Positions 4,479-60,653 of a DNA stretch of 64,000 nt are shown here, one piece after another; within the stretch, counting starts at the first letter, position 1, and every line of letters starts with the position of its first letter. The position numbers were made by a program, and so were the translations under genes. Source of the DNA: an uncultured Nocardioidaceae bacterium (GTDB lineage Bacteria > Actinomycetota > Actinomycetes > Propionibacteriales > Nocardioidaceae); NCBI GenBank assembly GCA_902805845.1, contig CADCUI010000001.1, positions 140,592-204,591 of the forward strand. Reading direction: 5' to 3'. Below the pieces are notes generated by a model. The model did no database searches. It was not told the DNA's origin and was given only the letters and a program-made list of their open reading frames with translations.

Positions 4479-4544
4479 CGCGATCCGCCCTCGATGTCCG
4501 GCCGATCCGCCCGCGATGTCCGGCCGACTCGCCCCTCGTGCAGG
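4479..4544 (+). repeat. Family A 22-nt repeat, 3 tandem units, forward orientation
   Basis: Units are cgcgatccgccctcgatgtccg, gccgatccgcccgcgatgtccg and gccgactcgcccctcgtgcagg. The array ends 27 nt before the VOC start codon. Confidence 0.85.
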
Positions 4545-4571: not shown

Positions 4572-5267
4572 ATGACCGGCATGGTGCTCGCGACGTACAA
4601 GGACCTCTGCATCGACGCCGTCGACCCGGAGCGGATGGGGCGCTTCTGGGCCGAGGCGCTCGAGCTGGACCTCGAGCTGCTCGACGACGGCGACGCCAAG
4701 CTGACGGGCCCGACGCCCCAGCACACCGTGTGGGTCAACGGCGTCCCGGAGCCGTTGACCGTCAAGCAGCGGGTCCACCTCGACGTCTGGGCCGACGCGT
4801 ACGACGACGTGGAGGCGCTGGGAGCCACCATGGTCGACGCGGAGAGCTTCACGTGGGCGGTGCTGCGTGATCCGGAGGGCGGCGAGCTCTGCGTCTTCCG
4901 CACCCGCCCGGAGGGACGCCCGGGGCTGATGGAGGTCGTCCTCGACACCCGCGACGTCGAGAGCGCGAAGGCGATCTCGGTCTGGTGGGCGGACGTGCTC
5001 GGAGGCAAAGCCATGGACGCCGTCGAGGACGGGTTCTCCTACGTCGAGCAGGTGCCGGAGGCGCCCTTCGAGAGCCTGGTCTTCGTGCCGGTCCCGGAGC
5101 CCAAGACGGTCAAGAACCGCATCCACATCGACGTGAGCACCCCCGACCTGGATGCGCTGCTGACCAGGGGCGCCTCGGTGGTGAGGCCGCAGGACGACGA
5201 GATCGGCTGGACCGTCATGGCCGACCCCGACGGCAACGAGTTCTGCGCCTTCGTGCCGGCCCGCTGA
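4572..5267 (+). CDS. VOC (glyoxalase/bleomycin-resistance/dioxygenase) family protein, two-domain
   Basis: 231-aa ORF with two similar halves (...RVHLDVW... and ...RIHIDVS...), typical of glyoxalase-like domain proteins. Confidence 0.75.
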   Translation: MTGMVLATYKDLCIDAVDPERMGRFWAEALELDLELLDDGDAKLTGPTPQHTVWVNGVPEPLTVKQRVHLDVWADAYDDVEALGATMVDAESFTWAVLRDPEGGELCVFRTRPEGRPGLMEVVLDTRDVESAKAISVWWADVLGGKAMDAVEDGFSYVEQVPEAPFESLVFVPVPEPKTVKNRIHIDVSTPDLDALLTRGASVVRPQDDEIGWTVMADPDGNEFCAFVPAR

Positions 5268-18404: not shown

Positions 18405-19085
18405 ATGCCGACCGAGCCGCCGCCGTCGCCGTGGCTCTTCCCGGACTTCACCCGGCCCGACCAGGACGCCGCCTGCACCGACGACCTGGTCGGGCGCGGC
18501 GCCGACCTGGCTCCGGGGACCCTCCTGTCGGCCTACCGGTCCGGTCTCTTCCCGATGCCGGACGGTGGCTCCGGCATGAGCTGGTGGTCACCTCGGGACC
18601 GGGGCGTGCTGCCCCTCGACGCGATGTGCGTGTCGCGCTCGCTCGCGAAGTCGTGCCGCCGGATGGAGCTGCGGGTCGACACGTCCTTCGAGGACGTGGT
18701 CGCCGCCTGCGCCGACCCGGCACGCGACGGGGGCTGGATCGACGCCGACATCGCCGCGGCGTACACCCGTCTCCACCGGCTGGGCTGGGCGCACTCGGTG
18801 GAGACGTGGCAGCACGGGGAGCTCGTGGGAGGGCTGTACGGGGTCGCCATCGGCGGGCTGTTCGCCGGCGAGTCGATGTTCCACCGGGTCACCGACGCCT
18901 CGAAGGTGGCGCTGGTGGGGCTGGTCGACCTGCTCTCCGACGAGTACGCCGGGGCCCGGCTGCTCGACGTTCAGTGGCGCACCCCGCACCTCGCCTCGCT
19001 GGGGGTGGTGGAGGTGCCGAGAGCCGGCTACGTCCGAGCCCTCCACGCCGCCCTCCAGGTGCCGTTGCCGACCCCCTGGCGCTGA
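18405..19085 (+). CDS. aat: Leucyl/phenylalanyl-tRNA--protein transferase
   Basis: LLSAYRSGLFPM, WWSPRDRGVLPLD and GGLYGVAIGGLFAGESMFH are typical of Aat. I chose ATG 18405 within the longer 17925 ORF. Confidence 0.85.
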   Translation: MPTEPPPSPWLFPDFTRPDQDAACTDDLVGRGADLAPGTLLSAYRSGLFPMPDGGSGMSWWSPRDRGVLPLDAMCVSRSLAKSCRRMELRVDTSFEDVVAACADPARDGGWIDADIAAAYTRLHRLGWAHSVETWQHGELVGGLYGVAIGGLFAGESMFHRVTDASKVALVGLVDLLSDEYAGARLLDVQWRTPHLASLGVVEVPRAGYVRALHAALQVPLPTPWR

Positions 19086-19156
19086 CCCGCCCCTCAGGTC
19101 TGGCCGAGCCGCCCAACATGTTGGGCGGCTCGGCCAGACATGAGGGGCGGCTCGAC
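19083..19156. repeat. Family A palindromic element (2 forward plus 2 reverse units); probable bidirectional terminator
   Basis: CCGCCCCTCAGGTCTGGCCGAGCCGCCCAAC-AT-GTTGGGCGGCTCGGCCAGACATGAGGGGCGG forms 31-nt arms with one mismatch. It fills the whole gap between the convergent aat and fpg-like stops. Confidence 0.85.
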
Positions 19157-28833: not shown

Positions 28834-28890
28834 CCGAGTCGGCGCGAATGCACGCCGGCTCGTGCATTCACGCCGACTGGGCCTGCTTTT
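28834..28890 (+). terminator. Hairpin formed by the first forward/reverse Family B pair, followed by a CTTTT run
   Basis: An ~18-bp stem (agtcggcgcgaatgcacg / cgtgcattcacgccgact, one mismatch), loop ccggct, then gcctgcttttc. On the other strand the same palindrome follows the arcA stop. Confidence 0.45.
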
Positions 28891-28942
28891 CGCGTGCATT
28901 CGCGCCGACTCGGCGTGCGGGGCGTGCGTTCGCGCCGACTCG
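28834..28942. repeat. Family B repeat cluster (1 forward plus 3 reverse units)
   Basis: ccgagtcggcgcgaatgcacg (forward), then cgtgcattcacgccgactgg, gcgtgcattcgcgccgactcg and cgtgcgttcgcgccgactcg (reverse). It lies between the convergent thioesterase and arcA stops. Confidence 0.85.
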
Positions 28943-30163
28943 TCAGACGGGGTCGCGGGAGATCGGGCACGACATGCACCGGGGCCCGCCGCGCCCGGAT
29001 CCGAGCTCGGACCCGGCGATCGCGATGACCTCGATGCCGGCGGCCTCGAGCCGGGCGTTGGTCTCGACGTTCCGCTCGTAGGCCACCGCGACCCGCGGCG
29101 CGATCGCCAGGGTGTTGTTGCCGTCGTCCCACTGCTCGCGCTCGGCGGTGACGGGGTCGAGGCCGGTGTCGATCTGGTGCAGCGTGTCGATGCGCATGGC
29201 CTTGGCGGCGGCCACGAGGAAGGGCTCCTCCGGCGCCATGTCGAGCACCATGCCGCCGTCGTCCCCGCGGTCGGCGACGGTCACGGCGTAGGCCGACAGG
29301 GAGTCGGCGAGGTTGGGATACATCACGATCTTGTCGACGTCGACCATCGTGCAGACGGTGTCCAGGTGCATGGTGGCCCGCTGCTGGGCGATGGGCACCG
29401 CCAGCACGGTCTCGGCCAGGTCCGCGGCGAACATCTGCCGCGCCAGCCGCTCCGCACCGGCCGGTGTGGTGCGCTCGCCGACACCGACGGCGACGACACC
29501 CGGCGCCAGGAGGAGGACGTCGCCGCCCTCGACGTACTCCTGGTGCCAGCCGTGGATCCGGGGTACGCCGGCGAAGCGCGGATGCAGGGAGTAGATGAGC
29601 TCGGTCAGCTGGCTCTCCCGGTCCCGCGCCTCCATCTTCAACGACGTGATGGCGACGTGGTCGCGGACCCACACGCTCGAGTCACGCGTGAACAGCAGGT
29701 TGGGCAGCGGGTCGACGAGGAAGTCGTCGGAGGGCAGCAGCGTGGTGACCAGGCCGTGGCCGCCGCGGACCTCGTCGTTGCGGACGCCCTCGCAGAGCAC
29801 CCGGGTGAGCTCTGCCGGGCCGAGCTCGGTGAGCGCCGTGGTGAGGTAGTCGCGCAGGGTGTCGCCCAGCCCGAGGTTCTGCATCACCGCGGTGATCGCG
29901 CGCGACCGGGCCTCCTCCGACTCCAGCGTCTCGGCCAGCAGCTCCACCAGGTAGAGCACCTCGACCCCACGCGCCCGCAGCGCCTCGGCGAACGCGTCGT
30001 GCTCCTCCTGTGCCCGGCTCACCCACGGGATGCCGTCGTAGAGCAGCTTGTCGTTGTTGCGGGGCGTGAGCCGTTTCAGCTCCGGCCCGGGCCGGTGAAG
30101 CATCACCGTGCGCAGCCGTCCGACCTCGCTGTCGACCCCTGGGGGCGCTCCCGCCGCGTCCAT
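28943..30163 (-). CDS. arcA: Arginine deiminase
   Basis: [17 protein letters not shown] at the N-terminus, a catalytic Cys near the C-terminus ([10 protein letters not shown]), and 406 aa. Confidence 0.92.
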
Positions 30164-32252: not shown

Positions 32253-33539
32253 TCAGGCGGTCTGGCGCGGTCGAGGGGCTGTGCGTCCGCCCTGGCCAGG
32301 CAGCCCCTGGCCAGGCAGCCCCTGGCCAGGCAGCCCCTGGCCAGGCAGCCCCTGGCCAGGCAGCCCCTGGCCTGCGCCGAGGGCGATGCCCCGTTCGCAC
32401 AGCCACGTCGAGATCCGCTCGTACGTCGGTTCGGGCAGGGCGACCACCGGCTCGATGCAGTCGGCGAACCGGCCGCACGCCTCGGACCACACCGCCAGAT
32501 TTCGCGGGCCGTAGTCCTCGCCCGCTGCGAAGTGGTCGGCAGCCGCCGACGAGATCCGCACCGTCACGCACTCGGGGCGGTCGAGCCGCCGCTGATGACC
32601 GAGGAACGCCTTGCCGCTCTTGATGCCGAGCACGATCTTGAGCCGGATCACCAAGTCGAGCAGCCAGAACATCGGGGTCATCGAGTGGTGCCGGATCGCT
32701 GAGGAGCCGCTCGCGACGTACCGCCGCAGCAGGGACTCGTCGAAGGCCAGCCCCAGCCGGTTGGCCTCGCCCACCATCCACAGCAGCGCGGTGTCGGAGA
32801 GCCCCGCCTCGGCGTAGCCGCCGCCGACGTCGGAGTGCACGCCTTCGAACCACACCTGGCGGACCCGCTCGTCCTCGTTGTCGCCGCCCTTCACGGCCTC
32901 CCAGAGGCAGGGCTCGAACTTCATCCGCTGCTCGTCGGCGGCCAGCGCCTGCCGGGCACAGAGCACCGCGTCGCTGAGCTGCACGTCGTGGAACTGGTGA
33001 GCACGGCGGACGGCGCCGGGCACGCCGAGCGCGCCGACGGTGTCGAACACGCCGAGGAACTGGATAGGTGTCGCGTCGTGGCAGTAGTCGTGGCGGAACT
33101 CTGCGGCGCTGGAGCCGAACATGCCACCGGCGGGATCGCGCTGCCTGTAGCGCGCCACCGCCTCGGGCAGCCGCTCGTCTACGAGGGCCCGCCTGGTCAG
33201 CAGTCCGACCTTTCCGATCATCCCCACCATCGACCGGGCGGTGTAGGCGCCGCGGCTGAAGCCGAACACGAAGATCTCGTCGCCCGGCTCGTAGTTGAGG
33301 GCCAGGAAGCGGTAGCCGGCCAGCACGTTGGTGAAGAGGCCCAGCCCGAACGCGCCGCCGAGGAACCGGTCCACGCGGTAGCTGCCGCCCACCCCGCTGA
33401 GGTAGAGCACCAGCTGCTGCACGCCGTCCGTGGCGGCGAGGTCGGTCTGCACGGTCCGAGCGATCTTCTCGATGTTGGTGACACACCGGCTGTCGGGGCG
33501 GTTCCACGTCCCGTCGCAGCAGATCACCAGCCGCTTCAT
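32253..33539 (-). CDS. DUF2235 (Tle1-like alpha/beta hydrolase) protein with C-terminal (GQGLP)5 repeat
   Basis: MKRLVICCDGTWN and FGFSRGAYTARS (GxSxG). The start at 33539 is preceded by GGGAGGAG. The 33605 start in the ORF track is an extension. Confidence 0.8.
   Translation of the reverse strand: MKRLVICCDGTWNRPDSRCVTNIEKIARTVQTDLAATDGVQQLVLYLSGVGGSYRVDRFLGGAFGLGLFTNVLAGYRFLALNYEPGDEIFVFGFSRGAYTARSMVGMIGKVGLLTRRALVDERLPEAVARYRQRDPAGGMFGSSAAEFRHDYCHDATPIQFLGVFDTVGALGVPGAVRRAHQFHDVQLSDAVLCARQALAADEQRMKFEPCLWEAVKGGDNEDERVRQVWFEGVHSDVGGGYAEAGLSDTALLWMVGEANRLGLAFDESLLRRYVASGSSAIRHHSMTPMFWLLDLVIRLKIVLGIKSGKAFLGHQRRLDRPECVTVRISSAAADHFAAGEDYGPRNLAVWSEACGRFADCIEPVVALPEPTYERISTWLCERGIALGAGQGLPGQGLPGQGLPGQGLPGQGLPGQGGRTAPRPRQTA
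32290..32370. repeat. 15-nt tandem repeat ccaggcagcccctgg, x5.4, in frame in the DUF2235 gene
   Basis: Five perfect units from 32296 to 32370 plus a partial leading unit. It encodes GQGLP x5 near the C-terminus. The unit ends (ccagg/cctgg) are self-complementary. Confidence 0.95.
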
Positions 33540-36895: not shown

Positions 36896-36981
36896 CGAGT
36901 CGGCGCTTGTGCACGCCGGAACCCCGTCGAGTCGGCGCTTGTGCACGCCGGAACCCCGTCGAGTCGGCGCTTGTGCACGCC
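36896..36981 (+). repeat. Family B repeat, 2.7 tandem units (32-nt period)
   Basis: cgagtcggcgcttgtgcacgccggaaccccgt occurs twice, then cgagtcggcgcttgtgcacgcc. It lies between the pirin stop and the start of the small membrane gene. Confidence 0.9.
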
Positions 36982-36994
36982 GACAGCGCCGAGG

Positions 36995-39707: not shown

Positions 39708-40556
39708 GTGGCTGACTGGCGGCCGAGCGAGGCGCAGCAGCAGCGCCTCGTGGTCGCACGACGGATGCACCGGCGTTCCTCGCTGCTGGCCTCGGCCTCG
39801 GCCGTGGTCTTCTTCGCCGTCGTCGCTTTGGCCCTCGTCTCGTCCCCGGGATGGCCGACGGTGCGGGCCACCTTCTTCGACTGGTCGCAGGCGGTCGAGG
39901 CCTGGCCCGACGTGGTGGAGGGCTTCTGGGTCAACGTCCGGCTGTTCCTCCTCGCGGAGCCGCTGATCCTCCTGCTCGGGCTGGCCGTGGCCGCGGTCCG
40001 GGTGAGCAGGTCCCCGGTGCTGGTGCCGTTGCGGATGATCGCGATCGGGTACACCGACCTGTTCCGAGGTCTTCCGACGATCCTCGTCGTCTTCCTGGTC
40101 TGCTTCGGCGTACCGGCGCTGCAGCTGCAGGGTGTGACCACCTCGCTGTTCTGGCTGGCGTTGGTGGCGCTGGTGCTCTCCTACGGGGCCTACGTCGCGG
40201 AGGTGTTCCGTGCCGGCATCGAGTCCGTGCACCCGTCACAGGTCGCCAGCGCCACGGCGCTCGGTCTGTCCAACGCGCAGACGCTCCGGCACGTGGTGGT
40301 GCCACAGGCGGTACGCCGCGTCCTCCCGCCGCTGCTGAACGACTTCATCTCGCTGCAGAAGGACACCGCGCTGGTGGCGACCGTGGGGCTGCTCGACGCC
40401 CTGGGCACCGCCTCGGACGCGGCGAACTACTCCTTCAACTTCACCCCCTACCTGGTGGCGGCGGCCCTCTTCGTGGCGCTGACCGTCCCGCTCGCCCGGC
40501 TCACCGACTGGTTGGGACGGCGCGCGATGCAGCGCGAGCGGGCAGGTGTCCCGTGA
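39708..40556 (+). CDS. Polar amino acid ABC transporter permease
   Basis: The EAA-like loop ATALGLSNAQTLRHVVVPQA and a multi-TM translation. Confidence 0.85.
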   Translation: MADWRPSEAQQQRLVVARRMHRRSSLLASASAVVFFAVVALALVSSPGWPTVRATFFDWSQAVEAWPDVVEGFWVNVRLFLLAEPLILLLGLAVAAVRVSRSPVLVPLRMIAIGYTDLFRGLPTILVVFLVCFGVPALQLQGVTTSLFWLALVALVLSYGAYVAEVFRAGIESVHPSQVASATALGLSNAQTLRHVVVPQAVRRVLPPLLNDFISLQKDTALVATVGLLDALGTASDAANYSFNFTPYLVAAALFVALTVPLARLTDWLGRRAMQRERAGVP

Positions 40557-41290
40557 GCAGCCCGCCGGTGCTCAGGATCGAACGGCTCCGCAAGACGTAC
40601 GGCGACCGCACGGTCCTCCGTGATCTCGACCTCACCGTCGAGGCGCACGACGTCGTCTGCCTGATCGGCGCCTCGGGCAGCGGCAAGTCCACGCTGCTCA
40701 GGTGCATCGACCTCCTCGAGCCGACCCAGGACGGCACGATCTGGTTCGAGGGCCAGGACGTGTCGGATCCGCGGGTCGATGCCCGTGCCGTCCGCAAGCG
40801 GATCGGCGTGGTCTTCCAGGCCTACAACCTCTTCCCGCACCTCACCGTGCTCGACAACGTGATGCTCGCGCCCCGCAAGGTGCACGGGCTGTCGGCTGAC
40901 CAGGCCAGGGCCAGGGCGACCGAGCTGCTGGAGCAGTTCGGCCTGGCCGACAAGGCCGACGCGCACCCCGACCGGTTGTCGGGCGGCCAGCAGCAGCGAG
41001 CCGCGGTGGTGCGTGCGTTGGCGACCAGTCCTTCCCTGCTGCTGCTGGACGAGGTGACCGCGGCGCTGGATCCGCTGCTCGTCGGCGAGGTGCTGGAGAT
41101 CCTCCGGCGGCTGGCCGAGCAGGGCACCACCATGGTGCTCGCCACCCACGAGATGGGCTTCGCCCGGGACGTCGCGACCAAGGTGTGCTTCCTCGACGAC
41201 GGCTGCGTCCTCGAGGAGGGCTCGCCGGCCGCCATGTTCTCGGCGCCGCGTGAGCAGCGCACCCGTCAGTTCCTCCGCCGCATCCTCTGA
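40553..41290 (+). CDS. Polar amino acid ABC transporter ATP-binding protein (GlnQ-like)
   Basis: GASGSGKSTLL, LSGGQQQRAAVVRAL and LLLDEVTAALD. GTGA overlap with the permease stop. Confidence 0.9.
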   Translation: MSSPPVLRIERLRKTYGDRTVLRDLDLTVEAHDVVCLIGASGSGKSTLLRCIDLLEPTQDGTIWFEGQDVSDPRVDARAVRKRIGVVFQAYNLFPHLTVLDNVMLAPRKVHGLSADQARARATELLEQFGLADKADAHPDRLSGGQQQRAAVVRALATSPSLLLLDEVTAALDPLLVGEVLEILRRLAEQGTTMVLATHEMGFARDVATKVCFLDDGCVLEEGSPAAMFSAPREQRTRQFLRRIL

Positions 41291-41299
41291 CCCCCCGTC

Positions 41300-41387
41300 G
41301 CCGACCCGCCCCTCATGTCTGGCCGACCCGCCCCTCATGTCTGGCCGACCCGCCCGTCATGTCCGGTCGACCCGCCTTTCGTGCAGA
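41300..41387 (+). repeat. Family A 22-nt repeat, 4 tandem units, forward
   Basis: gccgacccgcccctcatgtctg x2, then gccgacccgcccgtcatgtccg and gtcgacccgcctttcgtgcaga. The array ends 10 nt before the CoA-transferase ATG. Confidence 0.9.
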
Positions 41388-41397
41388 ATCCCCACGC

Positions 41398-42555
41398 ATG
41401 GCCTACGCGCTGGACCAGGGGACGGGACCACTCAGGGGCATCAGGGTCGTCGAGATCGCCGGCATCGGTCCTGGCCCACACGCGGCGACGATCCTGGCCG
41501 ACCTGGGGGCCGACGTCGTCCGGATCGAGAAGCCGGGGGGTGCGGCGAGTGCCGGCCCACGCAGGACCGACCTGCTCACCCGGGGCCGACCGAGCGTCGT
41601 CCTCGACCTCAAGCACCCGGCCGCCCTCGCGGCCGTGCTCGAACTGGTGGCCGAGGCGGACGTCCTCATCGAAGGCATGCGCCCCGGTGTCGCCGAGCGT
41701 CTCGGCTTCGGGCCCGAGGACTGCTTCGCGCGAAACGGCAGGCTGGTCTACGGCCGGATGACGGGGTGGGGCCAGGACGGCCCTCTCGCGCAGGCCGCCG
41801 GCCATGACCTGAACTACATCGCCGTCAACGGGTTGCTCCACGGGCTCGGTCAGGACCCCAGCCGCCCACACTTCCCGAGCAACCTCCTTGGCGACTTCGG
41901 AGGTGGTTCGACGTACCTCGTGATCGGCGTGCTCGCCGCCGTCCTCGAGGCGCGCACAAGCGGGACGGGGCAGGTGGTGGACGCCGCGATCGTCGACGGC
42001 ACTGCTCACCTGAACCTGATGTGGGCCTCCCTGCTCGCCGGTGGCCTCGGCCAGGAACGGCGGGCGTCCAACATGCTCGACGGAGGCATCCCGCACTACG
42101 ACCTCTACGAGACCGCCGACGGCGAGCACATGGCCGTCGGGGCGCTGGAGCCGCGCTTCTACGCCGACCTGCTGGCACGCCTCGGCATCGCAGGGGTGGC
42201 GCCCGACCGCCACGACGCCGACCGGCTGGGCGAGCTCCGCCAGCTCCTCACCGACACGTTCCTGACCAGGACGCAGGCGGAGTGGACTGCGATCTTCGCC
42301 GGCAGCGACGCCTGCTGCACCCCGGTCCTGCCGCTGACCGAGGCACGCGAGCATCCCCACCTCGAGGCGCGCGGGGTGTACGTCGACCGCGGTGGTGTCG
42401 TGCAGCCGGCCCCTGCTCCCCGGTTCTCCCGGACCGGGGCAACCCTGTCCACCGGGCCGTCCACGCCCGGGGCGGACACCCGCGCGGTGCTCGAGGCGTG
42501 GGGCGTCGCCGACGTCGACGTACTGCTCAACTCAGGTGCCGCCGTCCAAGCCTGA
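41398..42555 (+). CDS. CaiB/BaiF family III CoA-transferase (alpha-methylacyl-CoA racemase-like)
   Basis: GIRVVEIAGIGPGPHAATILADLGADVVRIE and GWGQDGP...AGHDLNY are typical of family III CoA-transferases and racemases. Confidence 0.88.
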   Translation: MAYALDQGTGPLRGIRVVEIAGIGPGPHAATILADLGADVVRIEKPGGAASAGPRRTDLLTRGRPSVVLDLKHPAALAAVLELVAEADVLIEGMRPGVAERLGFGPEDCFARNGRLVYGRMTGWGQDGPLAQAAGHDLNYIAVNGLLHGLGQDPSRPHFPSNLLGDFGGGSTYLVIGVLAAVLEARTSGTGQVVDAAIVDGTAHLNLMWASLLAGGLGQERRASNMLDGGIPHYDLYETADGEHMAVGALEPRFYADLLARLGIAGVAPDRHDADRLGELRQLLTDTFLTRTQAEWTAIFAGSDACCTPVLPLTEAREHPHLEARGVYVDRGGVVQPAPAPRFSRTGATLSTGPSTPGADTRAVLEAWGVADVDVLLNSGAAVQA

Positions 42556-42556
42556 C

Positions 42557-42643
42557 CAGCATCCCGGGCGGGTCGGGCAGACATGAGGGGCGGGTCGAGC
42601 AGACATGAGGGGCGGGTCGGGCAGACATGAAGGGCGGGTCGGC
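42557..42643 (-). repeat. Family A 22-nt repeat, 4 tandem units, reverse
   Basis: cagcatcccgggcgggtcggg, cagacatgaggggcgggtcgag, cagacatgaggggcgggtcggg and cagacatgaagggcgggtcggc. The array starts 2 nt after the CoA-transferase stop. Confidence 0.9.
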
Positions 42644-42767
42644 ACCGTGGCCAGAGGGGCTGAGGAGGGCCCGGCCATGGCCACCGTGACAGCCGCGGTG
42701 CCAGAGTTGGATACTCACCGGTAACCGCGCCTGTCGGGTCGCGGACGCCGCACCGAAAGTGGGGAGC

Positions 42768-43985
42768 ATGACTGACGCGCCGCAGGCGATCGTGTACGAC
42801 GCAATCCGAACCCCGCGGGGCAAGGGCAAGAAGGACGGGTCGCTCCACGAGGTGAAGCCGATCGACCTGGTCGTCACGCTCCTCGACGAGATCCGCAAGC
42901 GCAATGACGGCTTCGACCCCGCGCGGGTCGACGACGTGGTGCTCGGGATCGTCACCCCGATCGGGGACCAGGGTGGCGACCTCGCCAGGACCGCCGCCCT
43001 CGCGGCTGGCTATCCCGAGACCACCGCCGGCGTGCAGCTCAACCGGTTCTGCGCCTCCGGCCTCGAGGCGGTCAACCAGGCCGCGGCCCGGGTCCGCTCC
43101 GGATGGGAGGACCTCGTCCTCGCCGGCGGGGTCGAGTCGATGAGCCGGGTGCCGATGGGCTCCGACGGTGGCGCCTGGGCCTGCGACCCGGCGACGGCGT
43201 TCCAGACCGCCTTCGTGCCGCAGGGCATCGGTGCCGACCTCGTCGCCACCCTCGAGGGATTCAGCCGCAGGGACGTCGACGCCTACGCCGCCGAGTCACA
43301 GGCACGTGCGGCCAAGGCGCAGGCCAACGGGTACTTCGACGGTTCCGTCGTCCCGGTCCGAGACATGAACGGGCTCACGATCCTCGAGCGCGACGAGCTC
43401 ATCCGGCCCGGCACCACCGTCGAGACCCTCGCGGCCCTCAAGCCCAGCTTCGCCTTCCACGGCGACCTCGGGTTCGACGCCGTCGCGCTCGAGAAGTACC
43501 ACTGGGTCGAGCGCATCAACCACGTCCACCACGCCGGCAACTCCTCCGGCATCGTCGACGGCGCGGCGATCGTCGTCGTCGGCACCGAGCAGGTCGGTGA
43601 GGAGCTGGGGCTGCGCCCGCGTGCCCGCATCCTGTCGACAGCCGTCTCCGGCTCCGAGCCGACGATCATGCTCACCGGCCCCGCGCCGGCGGCTCGCAAG
43701 GCGCTCGCGAAGGCAGGTCTCACCATTGGTGACATCGACCTCTGGGAGATGAACGAGGCCTTCGCCGCCGTGGTCCTCCGCTTCATGCGCGACCTGGAGC
43801 TCGACTCCGAGGTCGTCAACGTCAACGGCGGTGCGATCGCCATGGGCCACCCGCTCGGCGCCACCGGCGCGATGCTCATCGGCACCCTGGTCGACGAGCT
43901 CGAGCGGCGCGACCTGCGCCGCGGGCTGGCCACTCTCTGCGTCGGTGGCGGGATGGGCATCGCCACCGTCGTCGAGCGCATCTGA
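42768..43985 (+). CDS. fadA: Acetyl-CoA C-acyltransferase (thiolase)
   Basis: [12 protein letters not shown] (active-site Cys), [17 protein letters not shown] and CVGGGMG. Confidence 0.9.
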
Positions 43986-44015: not shown

Positions 44016-46214
44016 GTGACCGAGCAAAACCACGTCGTGCGTTACGAGCGCGACGAAGACGGGATCGTCACGCTCACCATGGACGAGCCGGGGGCCGGCG
44101 CCAACACCATGAACGAGGCCTACCGCGACGGCATGCGGACGGCCGTCGACCGGCTGGTGCACGAGGTGGCGGCCACCGGCGACGTCGTCGGCGTCGTCCT
44201 CGCCAGCGGCAAGAAGACGTTCTTCGCCGGTGGCAACCTCAACCTGCTGGTGCAGGCGCGGCCCGAGGACGCCCGGCAGCTCTTCGACCAGAGCATGACC
44301 ATCAAGGCCGACCTACGGCGGCTCGAGACTCTCGGAGTCCCGGTCGTGGCCGCGATCAACGGCGCCGCGCTCGGGGGAGGGCTGGAGATCGCGCTGGCCT
44401 GTCACCGGCGGATCGCCGCGGAGGGACGCTACGAGATCGGGCTGCCGGAGGTGACGCTCGGGCTGCTGCCCGGAGGTGGGGGCGTCGTACGCACGGTGCG
44501 GATGCTCGGCCTGCAGACTGCGCTCACCGAGGTGCTGCTGCAGGGCCAGCGGTACAAGCCTGCCGTCGCCCTGGAGAAGGGGCTGGTCGACGAGGTCGTC
44601 CCGGCGCCCGACCTGCTGGGTCGGGCGAAGGCGTGGTTGCTGGAGAGCAGGGGCGACGAGAGCGCCGCCACGCAGCCGTGGGACCGGCAGGGCTACAAGA
44701 TGCCCGGCGGCACCCCGTCGCACCCGAGCCTGGCCGCGATGCTCCCGGTCTTCCCCGCGACGCTGCGCAAGCAGACCAAGGGCGCCGACTACCCCGCGCC
44801 GAAGGCGATCATGTCGGCGGCCGTGGAGGGCGCCCAGCTCGACGTCGAGGGTGCACAGCGGGTGGAGGCCCGCTACTTCACCAAGCTCGCGACAAGCCAG
44901 AACGCGAAGAACATGATCCAGGCGTTCTTCTTCGACCTGCAGGCGATCAGCTCGGGCTCGCTGCGGCCACCGGGCTTCGACGCCTTCCGGGCGGCGAGGG
45001 TCGCAGTCCTCGGCGCCGGGATGATGGGCGCCGGCATCGCCTACGTCTGCGCCAGGTCGGGCATGGAGGTCGTGCTCAAGGACGTCAGTCTCGAGGCCGC
45101 CGTGCGCGGCAAGGACTACTCGGCGAAGCTCAACGACAAGGCGATCTCGCGCGGCCGGTTGACGGCTGAGGGGTCCGCGGAGCTGCTCCGCCGGATCACC
45201 CCGACCGACAACACCGAGGACCTCAAGGGCTGCGACCTCGTCATCGAGGCGGTCTTCGAGGATCCTGCGCTGAAGCACAAGGTCCTCGCCGAGGTGCTGG
45301 ACGTCGTCAACGCCGATGCGCTGCTGTGCTCCAACACCTCGACGCTGCCGATCACCGAGCTCGCCGAGGGCGTCGACCGGCCGGCGGACTTCGTCGGCCT
45401 GCACTTCTTCTCCCCCGTCGACAAGATGCCGCTGGTGGAGATCGTCCGGGGCGCGGAGACCTCCGACGCCGCCGTCGCCAGGGCGATCGACGTCGTCCAA
45501 CAGATCCGCAAGACCCCCATCGTGGTCAACGACAGTCGCGGCTTCTTCACCTCCCGAGTCATCGGCACCCAGATCAACGAGGGCCTCGCGATGCTCAGCG
45601 AGGGTGTCCACCCGGTGAGCATCGAACGGGCGGCCCTCCAGGCCGGTTACCCGGTGGGGCCGCTGCAGATCAGCGACGAGCTCAACATGGAGCTCATGGT
45701 CAAGATCCGCAACGCCACGAGGGCCGCGGTCGAGCGCGAGGGCGGCGCCTACGCCCCGCATCCCGCCGAGCGGGTCATCGATCGGATGATCGAAGTGGGC
45801 CGGCCCAGCAAGCTGAGGGGCGCCGGCTTCTACGAGTACGACGAGGCGGGCAGTCGTCAGGGGCTCTGGACCGGGTTGCCGGGAGAGTTCCCGACCGCGG
45901 CCGATCAGCCGGACTTCCGGGAGCTGCAGGAGCGCTACCTCTTCATCGAGGCCGTGGAGACCGCGCGCTGCTTCGACGAAGGCGTGCTCACCTCGACAGC
46001 AGAGGCGAACATCGGCTCGATCTTCGGGATCGGCTACCCGGCCCTCACCGGCGGCGCCGCCCAGTTCATCGACGGCTACGAGGGCCCCGCCGGGACGGGG
46101 CTGACGGCGTTCGTGGCCCGGGCCCAGGAGCTGGCGGCGACGTACGGCGAACGCTTCCGGCCGCCGGCGAGCCTGCTGGGGAAGGCTGAACGGGGCGAGC
46201 GCTTCAAGGGCTGA
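44016..46214 (+). CDS. fadB: Fatty acid oxidation complex alpha subunit (enoyl-CoA hydratase / 3-hydroxyacyl-CoA dehydrogenase)
   Basis: An N-terminal crotonase fold ([18 protein letters not shown]) and a central NAD-binding [14 protein letters not shown]. 732 aa, downstream of the thiolase. Confidence 0.9.
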
Positions 46215-49677: not shown

Positions 49678-49787
49678 GCCGACCCGCCCTCGATGTCTGG
49701 TCGACCCGCCCACGATGTCTGGCCGAGCCGCCCACGATGTCTGGCCGAGCCGCCCACGATGTCTGGCCGAGCCGCCCACGATGTCGG
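49678..49787 (+). repeat. Family A 22-nt repeat, 5 tandem units, forward (CGATG subtype)
   Basis: gccgacccgccctcgatgtctg, gtcgacccgcccacgatgtctg, gccgagccgcccacgatgtctg x2 and gccgagccgcccacgatgtcgg. Confidence 0.92.
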
Positions 49788-49864
49788 TTGACGGCTTGCG
49801 CCGCGGCGGCGTTGGCTGAGGGAAGGGCGCGGCGCCAGGTCGCGCCGACATCAGGAGGTAAACC

Positions 49865-50245
49865 GTGAGCAACCGCGTCGTGCACTTCGAGATCCCGTAC
49901 GACGACCCGGACCGCGCGTCGAAGTTCTACGCCGACACGTTCGGCTGGGAGCTCACGTCGATGCCCGAGATGGGCTACGTGCTGGCGTCGACCGGTCCCA
50001 GCGGCGAGCAGGGACCGACCGAGCCCGGCTTCATCAACGGGGGGATGCTCCAGCGGGGGAGTCACTGGACGGCACCCAACGTCGTCATCGACGTCGCCAA
50101 CATCGAGGACGCGCTCACGGCAGTGGGGGAGCACGGCGGCAGCACCGTGGTCGAGCGGGAGCCCGTCGGGGACATGGGTTTCAGCGCCTACTTCAAGGAC
50201 AGCGAGGGCAACCTGATCGGCCTCTGGGAGACCGCCAGCGGCTGA
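49865..50245 (+). CDS. VOC (glyoxalase) family protein
   Basis: VVHFEIPYDDPDRASKFYADTFGW and FKDSEGNLIGLWE are typical of single-domain VOC proteins. A GGAGG RBS lies before the GTG. Confidence 0.8.
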   Translation: MSNRVVHFEIPYDDPDRASKFYADTFGWELTSMPEMGYVLASTGPSGEQGPTEPGFINGGMLQRGSHWTAPNVVIDVANIEDALTAVGEHGGSTVVEREPVGDMGFSAYFKDSEGNLIGLWETASG

Positions 50246-50248
50246 TTG

Positions 50249-50314
50249 CCGGTACGCCGGGCGGGTCGGCCAGACATCGTGGGCGGGTCGGCCGGACATC
50301 GCGGGCGGGTCGGC
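50249..50314 (-). repeat. Family A 22-nt repeat, 3 tandem units, reverse (CGATG subtype)
   Basis: ccggtacgccgggcgggtcggc, cagacatcgtgggcgggtcggc and cggacatcgcgggcgggtcggc. It lies between the VOC stop and the convergent kinase stop. Confidence 0.88.
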
Positions 50315-50325
50315 GGGACGGGCAC

Positions 50326-58618: not shown

Positions 58619-59197
58619 ATGGGCGACCGCCCGAGCGTCGTGGTCGTCGACCACCAGGACTCCTACACCTTCAACCTGGTGCACCTGGTCGCCGCGGTGA
58701 CCGGCGAGCTCCCGGTGGTCGTCGACCACCACGAGGTGACGTCGACCGACCTCCTCGGGTTCAGCCACGTCGTCCTGTCGCCCGGACCCGGCAACCCCGA
58801 CGAGCCCGGCGACTTCGGGGTCGGCCGGGACGTGCTGCGCCACGCCGCCGTGCCGGTGCTCGGGGTGTGCCTGGGCATGCAGGGCCTCGTGGCCGGCTAC
58901 GGCGGCCGGGTGGCCGCTGTCAACCCGGCGCACGGTGACGTCGCCTCGGTGAGGCACGCAGGGACCGGGCTCTTCGAGGGCATCCCCTCGCCGTTCCAGG
59001 CGGTCCGCTACCACTCGCTGGCCGCTGTCAGCGTGCCGGCGGTCCTGGAGACCACCGCGTGGAGCGAGGACGGGACGGTGATGGCGGTCGCCCACCGGAC
59101 GCTGCCGCTGGTGGGCGTGCAGTTCCACCCGGAGTCGGTGCTGACCACCCATGGTGCGGTGATCGTCGAGAACTTCCTGTCCGGCCGGCTGCGGTGA
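58619..59197 (+). CDS. pabA: Glutamine amidotransferase component II (PabA/TrpG type)
   Basis: VVDHQDSYTFNL, the GVCLGMQ catalytic Cys, and VQFHPESVLT. Confidence 0.88.
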   Translation: MGDRPSVVVVDHQDSYTFNLVHLVAAVTGELPVVVDHHEVTSTDLLGFSHVVLSPGPGNPDEPGDFGVGRDVLRHAAVPVLGVCLGMQGLVAGYGGRVAAVNPAHGDVASVRHAGTGLFEGIPSPFQAVRYHSLAAVSVPAVLETTAWSEDGTVMAVAHRTLPLVGVQFHPESVLTTHGAVIVENFLSGRLR

Positions 59198-60549
59198 CCG
59201 GGCCGCCGGAGGCCTTCCAGGCGGCCGCGGGCTCCTCGGACAGGCTGGTGTGGCTGGACGGTCACGTGGCCGAGCACCCGTGGTCCGGCCGGGGCTCGCT
59301 GCTCGGTGTCCTCGGGGCCGACGACGTGTCGCTCACCTTCGACGCGGGTCGGCGACAGGTGCTCCGCCACCGTGGAGAGAACTCCCAGCCGGTCGGGGAC
59401 GACATCTTCGACGTCCTGGAGGCCGAGGTGGCTCGGGACGCCGGCGACCCGTCGGTGGTGTGGGTGGGCTACCTCGGTTACGCCTGCCGGACCGACCTGC
59501 CCGGCAGACCGGCCGACCCGGGTTCCGGCGTACCCGACGCGGTGTGGCTGCGGCTGGTCGACCCCCTCACCCTGCCGACCCGCCCTTCATGTCTGGCCGA
59601 GCCGCCCACGATGCTGGGCGATCGCAGCATCGTGGGCGGCTCGAACGAACATGAAGGGCGGGTCGACGAGGGGTACGCCGCGGCGTACGCCGAGGTGCAA
59701 CGGCAGCTGCGGCTCGGGAACTCCTACGAGGTCAACCTCACCTACCGGGAGAGGCTCGCCTCCGACGTCGACCCGGTGACGGCGTACCTTCGCTTGCGCG
59801 AGATCAACCCGGCGCCCTACTCCGGCTACCTGCGGCACCGCGGTGTCCACCTGCTCAGCTCGAGCCCCGAGCGGTTCGCGGCCGTGGACGGGGAGCGGGT
59901 GCTCGAGGCCCGGCCGATCAAGGGCACGACGCGGCGTGGCGCGACCCCGGCGGAGGACGCCGAGGAGGCGCGACGGCTGGCCGCCGACCCGCGGTTCCGC
60001 GCCGAGAACCTCATGGTCGTCGACCTGCTGCGCAATGACCTGTCGATGGTGTGCGACCCCGGCACCGTCACGGTGCCGGCGCTGATGGCGGTGGAGTCCT
60101 ACCCCTCGGTGCACCAGCTCGTCTCGACGATCCGCGGCCGGCTGCACGACGGCGTCTCGACGGTGCGGGCGGTGCGGGCGCTCTTCCCGGCCGGGTCGAT
60201 GACCGGGGCGCCGAAACGCCGGACGATGGAGATCATCGACGCCGTCGAGGCCACCCCGAGGGGCGCGTACGCCGGGGCCTTCGGCTGGCTCTCCGGTGAC
60301 GGCCGGGCCGACCTCAGCGTCGTCATCCGGACCCTCGTCGCGACGCGGAGCGGCGTGTCGACCAGCATCCTGGGCGGCTCGACCGGACATGAGGGGCGGG
60401 TCGGCGGGTGGACCTACGAGCTCGGCACCGGCGGGGGGATCACCGTGCGCTCCACCCTGCACGAGGAGTACGACGAGACGCGCTGGAAGGCCGCCCGGCT
60501 CCGGGCGGCCCTCCACGTGGATCCTGGGTCGGACCTCTCGACGCCCTGA
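59194..60549 (+). CDS. pabB: Aminodeoxychorismate synthase component I-like chorismate-binding enzyme carrying two in-frame Family A repeat segments
   Basis: GTGA overlap with the pabA stop. Motifs: SYEVNLT, SSSPERF, RPIKGT, AENLMVVDLLRND, FPAGSMTGAPK, PRGAYAGAFGW and GGGIT. Repeat-derived peptides lie at about residues 127-158 and 390-404. Confidence 0.85.
   Translation: MTGPPEAFQAAAGSSDRLVWLDGHVAEHPWSGRGSLLGVLGADDVSLTFDAGRRQVLRHRGENSQPVGDDIFDVLEAEVARDAGDPSVVWVGYLGYACRTDLPGRPADPGSGVPDAVWLRLVDPLTLPTRPSCLAEPPTMLGDRSIVGGSNEHEGRVDEGYAAAYAEVQRQLRLGNSYEVNLTYRERLASDVDPVTAYLRLREINPAPYSGYLRHRGVHLLSSSPERFAAVDGERVLEARPIKGTTRRGATPAEDAEEARRLAADPRFRAENLMVVDLLRNDLSMVCDPGTVTVPALMAVESYPSVHQLVSTIRGRLHDGVSTVRAVRALFPAGSMTGAPKRRTMEIIDAVEATPRGAYAGAFGWLSGDGRADLSVVIRTLVATRSGVSTSILGGSTGHEGRVGGWTYELGTGGGITVRSTLHEEYDETRWKAARLRAALHVDPGSDLSTP
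59574..59667. repeat. Family A palindromic element (2 forward plus 2 reverse units around GCGATCG) inside the pabB CDS
   Basis: gccgacccgcccttcatgtctg and gccgagccgcccacgatgctgg, then gcgatcg, then cagcatcgtgggcggctcgaac and gaacatgaagggcgggtcgac. The ~40-nt arms have about 4 mismatches. Confidence 0.9.
60363..60405 (-). repeat. Family A half-element (2 reverse units) inside the pabB CDS
   Basis: cagcatcctgggcggctcgac and cggacatgaggggcgggtcggc. This is the same inner-unit variant (CAGCATCC) as at 42557. Confidence 0.85.
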
Positions 60550-60550
60550 C

Positions 60551-60653
60551 GGCGCAGGGCGGCCCAGCGAGGGCGGCCCGGCGCAGGGCGGCCCAGCGAG
60601 GGCGGGCCAGCGAGGCGGGCCAGCGAGGCAGTCCAGCGAGGCAGCCCAGCGAT
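60551..60653. repeat. Short tandem repeats: a 29-nt duplication followed by about 4 copies of a 13-nt unit (CCAGCGAGGCRGB)
   Basis: CCAGCGA recurs at 60564, 60593, 60607, 60620, 60633 and 60646. It fills the convergent gap between pabB and the protease gene. Confidence 0.85.

Follow-up and report, generated by a model that had tools for sequence, protein, structure and literature searches.

Facing repeat arrays on both sides of a resident racemase-like gene in an uncultured Nocardioidaceae bacterium

How does a complete gene come to stand between the two halves of what looks like a single palindrome? The question is posed by a locus at positions 41300-42643 of a 64,000-nucleotide stretch of DNA (the window) from an uncultured Nocardioidaceae bacterium (contig CADCUI010000001.1). 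Here mcr, a gene of CoA-transferase family III that resembles those for alpha-methylacyl-CoA racemase, lies between two short tandem arrays of one repeat family, set in opposite orientations. The best explanation, to which we give a probability of about 0.6, is that mcr is a resident gene and that the arrays were installed in place on both sides of it. These arrays resemble the repetitive extragenic palindromic (REP) sequences and bacterial interspersed mosaic elements (BIMEs) of Proteobacteria. The locus is one instance of a recurrent layout, and its repeats do not make up a cassette that carries genes.

The locus

Two arrays with a period of 22 are found by Tandem Repeats Finder, one at 41300-41376 and one at 42566-42642, both with 3.5 copies and 94% matches. 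In 22-nt register, the locus comprises the following:

41300..41387, + strand: forward (F) array, made up of four 22-nt units; it is open (no inverted core at the inner end) and rich in C on the + strand, and its last unit is the CGTGCAGA variant
41300-41321 and 41322-41343, + strand: units U1 and U2, both GCCGACCCGCCCCTCATGTCTG
41344-41365, + strand: unit U3
41366-41387, + strand: unit U4, GTCGACCCGCCTTTCGTGCAGA
41398..42555, + strand: mcr, CoA-transferase family III, alpha-methylacyl-CoA racemase-like (Pfam CoA_transf_3, E = 3.7e-77, full length)
42556..42643, - strand: reverse (R) array, likewise made up of four 22-nt units; it is open and rich in G on the + strand, and the CAGCATCC variant forms its inner unit, which abuts the mcr stop
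42556-42577, 42578-42599, 42600-42621 and 42622-42643, - strand: units R4, R3, R2 and R1

The forward array begins 9 nt past the stop codon of a glnQ-like gene (41288-41290) and, as an earlier prediction made from the sequence had it, ends 10 nt before the mcr ATG at 41398. That original prediction also placed four reverse units 2 nt after the mcr stop codon (42553-42555); the number stands, as does the distance by its own count, but in register R4 starts 0 nt after the stop. Complementarity between the arms is 81-92% over 61-102 nt, and the outer pairs U1/R1 and U2/R2 indeed differ by one base each, as claimed. These one-base differences reflect the homogeneity of the family and no special relationship of arm to arm. 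Because the units of both mcr arrays all lie near the family consensus, their similarity is uninformative about these two arms; R1 is identical to the first unit of another palindrome, at 59574. Family units are far from a chance occurrence: the window holds 12 matches at up to three mismatches, against 0.01 expected.

The inner units had been described as variants that meet at the centre of an intact palindrome at 59574-59667. This is true of the reverse variant, CAGCATCC, whereas the forward variant, CGTGCAGA, is a different end type, common to the array ends at 4523 and 38117. Arrays of the family have C-rich flanks on one side and G-rich flanks on the other, and the mcr arms are sharply bounded on the outside. 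Their outer flanks, CCCCCCGTC and ACCGTGGCC, are not direct repeats, so there is no target-site duplication. As a purely structural description, a family palindrome with a gene between its arms is apt, and the layout is both recurrent and non-random.

A resident gene

The mcr product matches PF02515 with 260 bits (cut-off 23.3) over profile positions 1-366, and its orthologues bear annotations as alpha-methylacyl-CoA racemase or CaiB/BaiF, a putative specificity. It is 100% identical to P0001, annotated by NCBI as alpha-methylacyl-CoA racemase of an uncultured Nocardioidaceae bacterium; in an exact look-up of the window protein from both possible start codons, neither form was on record. The gene stands in a block of neighbours on the same contig:

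40553..41290, + strand: glnQ-like ABC-transporter ATPase (Pfam ABC_tran, E = 4.7e-36), last gene of an operon for substrate-binding protein (SBP), permease and ATPase
42677..42767, + strand: conserved regulatory region of the thiolase-fadB operon, from a promoter scan, conserved in five relatives
42768..43985, + strand: thiolase, fadA-like (Pfam Thiolase_N and Thiolase_C; synteny)
44016-46214: fadB, directly after the thiolase gene

Orthologous regions were recovered, through their mcr and thiolase homologues, from six Nocardioidaceae relatives: L002; L003, which is Nocardioides caldifontis; L071; L072; L073; and L074, which is Marmoricola sp. SMAG_U883. Four of the six (L002, L071, L073 and L074) keep the order SBP-permease-glnQ-mcr-thiolase-fadB-ABC, with glnQ directly upstream of mcr, and L003 and L072 keep mcr-thiolase-fadB. 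The relatives' spacers measure 7-40 nt between glnQ and mcr and 55-260 nt between mcr and thiolase, and no family unit occurs in either spacer in any of the six. In L071, mcr begins MAYALNQGTGPL, 28 nt past the glnQ stop, which confirms the start at 41398.

The window mcr is 72-80% identical to its orthologues, which are 70-88% identical among themselves. Pairwise identity matrices are star-like for all five genes, and the window mcr is no outlier but falls in line with its neighbours. Since the relatives keep the gene order with short, repeat-free spacers, and since the divergence of mcr is ordinary, the repeats must have been added around a pre-existing gene. Judged by gene order and identity, mcr is an ancestral, vertically inherited resident of the glnQ-mcr-fadA-fadB block, and the repeats are the newcomers. 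In the window lineage they occupy both spacers of mcr: the ~19-nt glnQ-mcr spacer and the variable stretch of the mcr-thiolase spacer.

The regulatory block before the thiolase gene contains an operator-like GTGACAG..GGTGYCA, a promoter-like GTGACA-18-GATACT (42686-42715), and CGAAAGTGGGGA, which precedes the ATG at 42768. When the mcr-thiolase spacers are aligned, it can be seen that GTGACAG-N-GGTGYCA, GATACT and the CGAAAGTTGGGA block are conserved just before the thiolase gene (among others in L002, L003, L071 and L072), and that the reverse array fills the variable stretch between the mcr stop and this conserved promoter block.

Two details of the relatives' spacers may be recorded. A palindrome similar to the operator-like motif, TGACAG..CTGTCA, precedes mcr in L002 and is absent in the window, where the forward array fills that spacer. 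A native sequence resembling the reverse core follows the mcr stop in L002 (GGGCGGCCCGG) and, more weakly, in L072; as a candidate seed for the array it was rejected, such near-matches occurring at about 0.6 per kb and this one not being significant.

A family of iterated half-hairpins

The building block of the family is a 22-nt unit, made of a 12-nt core (G-Y-CGA-S-CCGCCC) and a spacer of ~10 nt, and iterated head to tail; GA-N-CCGCCCC is the core common to its variants. The terminal hairpin, GTCGAGCCGCCC-N9-GGGCGGCTCGAC, has a 12-bp stem and a 9-nt loop and spans ~33 nt. A strict two-unit pattern proved too specific as a probe, with no match in 185,579 species genomes and a presence in only two short metagenome contigs. 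A relaxed two-unit pattern worked: it identifies at least 65 loci among the species genomes of GTDB, which sets a lower bound on taxonomic spread, and none in 2.9 million viral contigs. About 58 of these loci lie in one 3.7-Mb long-read metagenome-assembled genome (MAG), MFD01275.bin.1.42 (hereafter the MAG), spread from 56 kb to 3.4 Mb along its 3.41-Mb main contig; in all, the MAG holds at least 60 family loci. The window is comparably rich, with ~9 loci in 64 kb. The same core is found with other spacers in Marmoricola (GCGTTGAGCCGCCCCTCGTGCT), in a further MAG (L035), and in N. caldifontis, there with a 33-nt period. Against Rfam, nothing in the window reaches the gathering score of any family.

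A core-based census yielded 85 elements: 42 closed hairpins and 43 open arrays (20 forward, 23 reverse). All 42 closed hairpins have the order forward then reverse. A typical element of the MAG consists of two to four forward units, and one inverted core, set off by a loop of 9 nt, closes the last of their cores. Closed palindromes fold strongly as RNA and open arms do not, as two closed examples from the window illustrate:

19081..19156, no strand assigned: closed palindrome between convergent genes, with two forward and two reverse units (z = -9.75 for an RNA fold of -77.7 kcal/mol)
59574..59667, no strand assigned: closed palindrome in frame inside a PabB-like gene (RNA fold z = -12.5), the reference "intact palindrome" of the original prediction

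Single elements favour the ends of genes: 25 lie in convergent, 18 in co-directional, and two in divergent spacers, against 8, 29, and 7 expected (p = 7e-10). With respect to gene direction their orientation is random (10:8 in co-directional spacers). A "sense rule", by which arrays would follow the stop codon of a gene transcribed towards them, was considered and dropped as an artefact of the excess in convergent spacers. The outer ends are preceded by a C-rich stretch, with a TGACC stop context in 68% versus 30% (p = 1e-5). Along the 3.4-Mb contig there is no replication-strand or replichore bias and no trend, and no recurrent gene family was found beside the arrays. Together, these properties describe an old, lineage-restricted family of small dispersed repeats in the Nocardioidaceae, REP/BIME-like in size, location, and behaviour.

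Three members deserve separate mention. Three forward units ending in the CGTGCAGG variant (4479-4544) lie in a divergent spacer, 37 nt upstream of a two-domain Glyoxalase_6 gene (4581-5267), with no reverse partner downstream. In the MAG (L038, 3041-3144), two-unit arms face each other around a 103-nt segment in a convergent spacer; the segment has its own unrelated 17-bp hairpin (GTGCGGTGCGTCTGAGTC..GACTCAGATGCACCGCAT), probably a terminator wrapped by the family element. Finally, in N. caldifontis, a cultured species, five reverse-type cores (GGGGCGGTTCAAC) spaced 33 nt apart lie downstream of fadB (L003, 11111-11250); they are a relative of the family with a longer period, and could serve as an experimental model.

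The facing rule

Does the mirror-image layout at mcr obey a rule? Neighbouring pairs were defined as asymmetric elements less than 2 kb apart. Eleven of the 13 such pairs face each other, one or two are in tandem, and none is back-to-back (p = 1.1e-5 versus random orientation); counted against back-to-back pairs, facing ones stand at 11:0 (p = 0.001). Of the facing pairs, the MAG contributes eight, the window two, and Marmoricola one. The original prediction had staked its case on a census in which forward and reverse arrays should flank genes more often than chance allows, and so they do.

All seven pairs that enclose a gene, in three genomes, are facing pairs (7/7, p = 6e-5), and in a simulation of random placement in the window, two or more facing brackets arise with P = 0.001. 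The genes inside the brackets are not related to each other: mcr; a glyoxalase-like gene; a PfkB kinase; DUF559; DUF5995; an NlpC/P60 protein; and a methyltransferase. The second bracket of the window is the glyoxalase-like one:

49678..50320, + strand: second bracket, five forward units (49678-49787) and three reverse units (50251-50320) enclosing a 126-aa glyoxalase/Ble-like gene (49865-50245)

This bracket lies in a variable region, where gene content differs in L073, L074, and the MAG (L060). In Marmoricola sp. SMAG_U883 (L074, 3160-4140), about four forward units (GCGTTGARCCGCCCCTCGTSCY) and two reverse units bracket the methyltransferase gene, which has no homologue in the syntenic Pirin-CDF region of L073 or in the window. 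Where a closed element neighbours an open array, the open array is of the same type as the closed element's nearer arm in 8/8 pairs (6 independent).

Gene direction cannot explain the facing rule, because orientation with respect to genes is random; nor can strength of pairing, because back-to-back arrays would pair equally well. The facing geometry is that of one hairpin element with something inside it, and at mcr the enclosed gene came first. The excess of facing neighbours is a statistically solid rule, and suggests a directional mechanism of spread.

Persistence and change of the arrays

The DUF5995 bracket can be followed across genomes. The MAG locus (L062) corresponds to loci in two other lineages (L075/L076 and L077/L078), with DinB 82-87% identical across the three and the orientation of DUF5995 kept in all. 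In L075/L076 the order is DinB, a hairpin (two forward units and one reverse core), DUF5995, three reverse units, and adh_short; L077/L078 share this layout with a single reverse unit. In the MAG the hairpin has lost its inverted core to decay, its forward array has expanded to three or four units, and the reverse units number three. Counts of reverse units across the lineages are thus 3, 1, and 3. Copy number therefore changes, open arrays can derive from closed ones, and a bracket can persist across lineages. The units at each locus carry the spacer variant of their own genome, which implies homogenisation or co-evolution with a recognising factor. The more distant L079 was tried as an empty-site comparison and is uninformative: an ABC operon replaces the gene, there are no arrays, and the gene set differs.

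Copies within a coding sequence also persist. The element at 59574-59667 sits at the orthologous position in the PabB-like gene of the MAG (L057, 3397-3470). A second set of in-frame units in the window's PabB-like gene (59194-60549), at 60364-60405, is specific to the window lineage and absent in L057, where the native sequence at the corresponding site is already G-rich. The in-frame units of this chorismate-binding gene are translated as ..LPTRPSCLAEPPTM..GGSNEHEGR.. and ..GGSTGHEGRVGG...

Pairing of the arms

Alone, neither mcr arm has significant RNA structure (z = +0.12 for the forward and +1.47 for the reverse arm). In the minimum-free-energy fold of 41285-42660, the arms pair with each other over ~100 nt. 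Both should be present in one RNA, because glnQ and mcr are almost certainly co-transcribed, given an ancestral spacer of 7-40 nt, and because the next conserved promoter lies beyond the reverse array, which would thus mark the end of the glnQ-mcr transcription unit. If co-transcribed, the arms would form a duplex of ~88 bp that loops out mcr. Duplexes of this length are substrates for RNase III, and the predicted one would probably be cleaved likewise. The same pairing is possible in single-stranded DNA. A panhandle of leader and trailer, as the original prediction envisaged, is thus physically plausible on the predicted fold, and it bears no sign of selection.

How the layout may have arisen

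If mcr came first, how were arrays of opposite orientation placed around it? A tentative model has facing pairs born in place, through strand-polar seeding from a resident hairpin element. On the same DNA strand, at a distance of up to ~2 kb downstream, the resident hairpin would seed additional units, either by single-strand cut-and-paste or by templated copying. Viewed from either strand, the new array would continue the nearer arm of the resident element. Slippage would then alter copy number, and decay of the original hairpin's single inverted core would leave a forward array, a gene, and a reverse array. Decay of a closed hairpin to an open array is seen directly at DUF5995. Under a strand-polar process, whichever strand is considered, the units added downstream of an element would always be of the reverse type, which would reproduce the observed geometry without moving the gene. 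There is a precedent in Escherichia coli: from a resident BIME to which it is bound, TnpA_REP cleaves single-stranded DNA at a distance of more than 400 nt, and the authors of that study propose that it inserts BIMEs remotely and can "sequester entire genes" (PMC3333891).

Several observations weigh against installation in place, or against its seeding step. The GC content at third codon positions (GC3) of mcr is 0.889 versus a mean of 0.932, the second lowest (z = -2.4) among the 50 window genes of at least 150 codons. The closest relative in any collection is only 89% identical in thiolase, and the mcr locus offers no intermediate state. Its inner ends differ in subtype (CGTGCAGA versus CAGCATCC), so that two separate arrays fit as well as one seeded from the other. 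Tests of arm similarity and of shared rare variants in the MAG gave no significant locus-specific relatedness of arm to arm. Nor does the complementarity of the arms reach into their flanks, as template-switch copying might have it. No transposase or recombinase, and no other mover or copier enzyme, was found among the 49 window proteins or the genes inside brackets, nor in ~0.6 Mb of recovered loci (not complete genomes) scanned with a rough Y1 probe. The seeding step is rated as less likely than not, given this absence of an enzyme and the model's dependence on geometry and the analogy with TnpA_REP.

The apparent excess similarity of partner arms was set aside. In the window partner arms are 0.86-0.91 similar, against at most 0.864 for arrays of different loci, but this involves only 40 comparisons, R1 equals a unit of another locus, and the corresponding test in the MAG is not significant.

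The original prediction proposed that the CoA-transferase gene, 1.16 kb long, was captured by or delivered to the tip of an intact family palindrome as a cassette. The forward-then-reverse polarity, matching that of all closed elements, suits this idea, as does the low GC3 of mcr, and at a few other brackets the gene may have entered a closed element: the methyltransferase of L074 lacks a homologue in L073 or the window; DUF5995 gives way to an ABC operon in L079; and the glyoxalase-like gene sits in a variable region. At mcr, it is refuted by a test that the prediction itself had named. The gene is syntenic in six relatives that lack the arms, with glnQ in four of them and with short, repeat-free spacers; its identity to orthologues matches that of its neighbours, so that the low GC3 does not make it a foreign allele; and the glnQ-thiolase junction, where the prediction looked for an empty-site palindrome in relatives, has mcr and no such palindrome. 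What remains of the idea here is scarcely credible. The second proposal, that the ~88-nt arms act as terminal inverted repeats or recombination sites of an invertible, excisable, or transposable unit, akin to a mobile insertion cassette or a composite MITE (both discussed below), draws on the seven single genes bracketed in three genomes, on the sharp outer boundaries with C-rich flanks, and on the whole genes reportedly sequestered by REP/BIME units (PMC3333891). It is nevertheless very improbable: mcr and DUF5995 keep their ancestral position and orientation, the latter through three lineages; target-site duplications are lacking; no transposase, invertase, or integrase is found in the window or beside the brackets; and the bracketed genes are unrelated housekeeping types, none of which recurs elsewhere. 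No evidence for inversion or excision by the arms thus emerged.

Could two unrelated arrays have landed by coincidence in the two spacers of mcr? The family is dense in the window, the arms differ in inner-end subtype, near-consensus units say little about common origin, and the arm-to-arm tests in the MAG are not significant; yet the placement simulation, the 11 facing pairs among 13 neighbours with none back-to-back, and the independence of orientation from gene direction together make coincidence improbable. A selected function for the panhandle, kept as an RNase III site or stabiliser that separates mcr expression from the ABC-transporter message, has more in its favour. The predicted fold pairs arms that are unstructured alone; co-transcription is likely, from the short ancestral spacer and the conserved fadA promoter past the reverse array; in every facing pair the enclosed gene has forward units on its 5' side and reverse units on its 3' side, on whichever strand it lies; and the DUF5995 bracket has persisted through three lineages. 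Precedent comes from the Correia elements of Neisseria, for which one report describes mRNA hairpins bound or cut by RNase III that can affect neighbouring genes (PMC2649163). Such a function is still unlikely. No compensatory changes are seen, and U3/R3 and U4/R4 pair poorly; back-to-back pairs would give equally good duplexes and yet none occurs, so that pairing alone cannot explain polarity; single elements show no orientation preference with respect to genes; and the relatives manage without arms. Quite unlikely, too, is an activity dedicated to the layout, a strand-polar nuclease or transferase for single-stranded DNA, or templated copying, that would install hairpin halves around resident single genes; the arms would pair over 0.1-2 kb in RNA or single-stranded DNA, as a general device that excises one cistron from an operon transcript or insulates it, or as a first step by which chromosomal genes become mobilisable cassettes. 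Installation of REP/BIME-like arrays around a resident mcr remains the reading that we prefer.

Other repeats in the neighbourhood

The window holds further tandem repeats. A seemingly second family, with units of 30-32 nt, occupies spacers beside gene ends at 36896-36982 and 28856-28952; one array is a perfect 2.7 copies of CGAGTCGGCGCTTGTGCACGCCGGAACCCCGT, and the other resembles its reverse complement. In the spacer behind the PabB-like gene, an array (60550-60652) has about seven copies of a 13-nt unit (AGGGCGGCCCAGCG), with a period of 29 as well; this array is rich in G and, like the family core, includes GGGCGG. Inside a Tle1-like phospholipase gene (32253-33539) lie 5.5 copies of a perfect 15-nt repeat (CCCTGGCCAGGCAGC; 32290-32372), which therefore encodes an in-frame 5-aa repeat. 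In L001 (6001-7938), two tandem CoA_transf_3 halves make up a 645-aa protein, each half being ~58-60% identical to mcr; its context (GntR, adh_short, topoisomerase) is unrelated, and this paralogue or fusion is irrelevant to the mcr locus.

Comparison with known systems

The closest likeness is to the REP/BIME systems of Proteobacteria and their REP-associated tyrosine transposases (RAYTs), including REPINs and REPtrons. In both, small GC-rich hairpins are scattered over tens of spacer loci where genes end; the units group in direct as well as inverted arrangements; sequence types are specific to a genome; and elements persist for long periods at orthologous sites. Short palindromes are in high copy at the 3' ends of genes here too (at least 60 loci in the MAG; convergent spacers enriched and divergent ones depleted, p = 7e-10), and copy number varies at a given locus, as with the reverse units at DUF5995 (3, 1, and 3), where a hairpin (two forward units, one reverse) or a forward array of three to four units stands upstream. 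BIMEs are also reported to flank whole genes on either side, and RAYT genes to have flanking REPs without exception (PMC3333891). The differences are equally plain. REPs have a conserved tag at one end of the palindrome, a GTAG (or CGTC) tetranucleotide (PMC3733652), whereas units here begin G-Y-CGA-S-CC and have neither tag at either end. A 22-nt half-hairpin is iterated, giving unequal numbers in the two arms, and polarity is strictly forward then reverse. The enclosed genes are housekeeping genes, not transposase genes, and no RAYT was found among the window proteins or the bracket genes, or with the rough probe on ~0.6 Mb. The host belongs to the Actinomycetota, and the published REP surveys that were searched contain no Nocardioidaceae family. 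Because the tag is lacking and no RAYT was found in the sequence searched, the family is not filed as a member of REP/BIME.

The inverted arms also recall mobile elements. Miniature inverted-repeat transposable elements, or MITEs, have inverted arms with nothing between them, and mobile insertion cassettes (MICs) have the ends of an insertion sequence (IS) flanking a passenger gene; here, similarly, inverted arms enclose either nothing or a gene. However, there are no target-site duplications, no cognate IS is seen in the 64 kb or in 8-kb blocks of the MAG, and the arms are tandem arrays of variable copy number. MITEs and MICs would be present or absent as whole units, at non-syntenic sites, whereas mcr is found without arms at the same site in six relatives. 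The gene is not a passenger, because it is syntenic in relatives that lack the arms. Integron attC sites share with the family imperfect palindromes right after stop codons, each gene seemingly with its own hairpin, but integron cassettes form a single array, in one orientation, beside intI/attI, whereas the loci here are dispersed (56 kb-3.4 Mb on the MAG contig), the window has no intI, and mcr is not mobile.

Among the repeats of Actinobacteria, mycobacterial interspersed repetitive units (MIRUs) are dispersed tandem repeats in spacers, often inside operons, with copy numbers that vary among strains. Dispersed tandem-repeat loci in actinobacterial spacers describe the present family as well. 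MIRU units, however, are 40-100 bp, direct only, oriented with transcription, and associated with coupled short open reading frames, whereas the present family has units of 22 nt, which is no multiple of 3, commonly has inverted arms, and shows an orientation of 10:8 with respect to genes. Rickettsia palindromic elements (RPEs) are single 100-150-bp elements in frame inside protein-coding genes, and family palindromes are similarly tolerated in frame in the PabB-like gene (59574-59667 and 60364-60405); the likeness applies to the family and not to the mcr locus, and the sequence, the host, and the iteration of 22-nt units set the two apart.

What emerges is an apparently undescribed REP/BIME-like system in a high-GC Gram-positive family, for no such family in the Nocardioidaceae turned up in a literature search, in keeping with the original prediction's remark that it knew of no described system of this layout in Actinobacteria. 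Its hallmarks are iterated half-hairpins, strict polarity, persistence across genera, and in-frame copies. The mcr locus, once stripped of its attractive capture reading, shows that the facing rule holds even around resident genes, and cultured carriers of variant units, such as N. caldifontis, could make the mechanism of spread testable.

For the panhandle, the best functional analogy is offered by the processing stems of 16S and 23S rRNA, in which flanking complements pair over ~1-3 kb, loop out the gene, and so yield a site for RNase III. Those stems have been demonstrated by experiment and are conserved and specific to their locus, whereas the mcr arms are copies of a dispersed repeat and absent in relatives. 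Should the arms have a role at the RNA level, they would add a new case in which long-range pairing processes or insulates one cistron.

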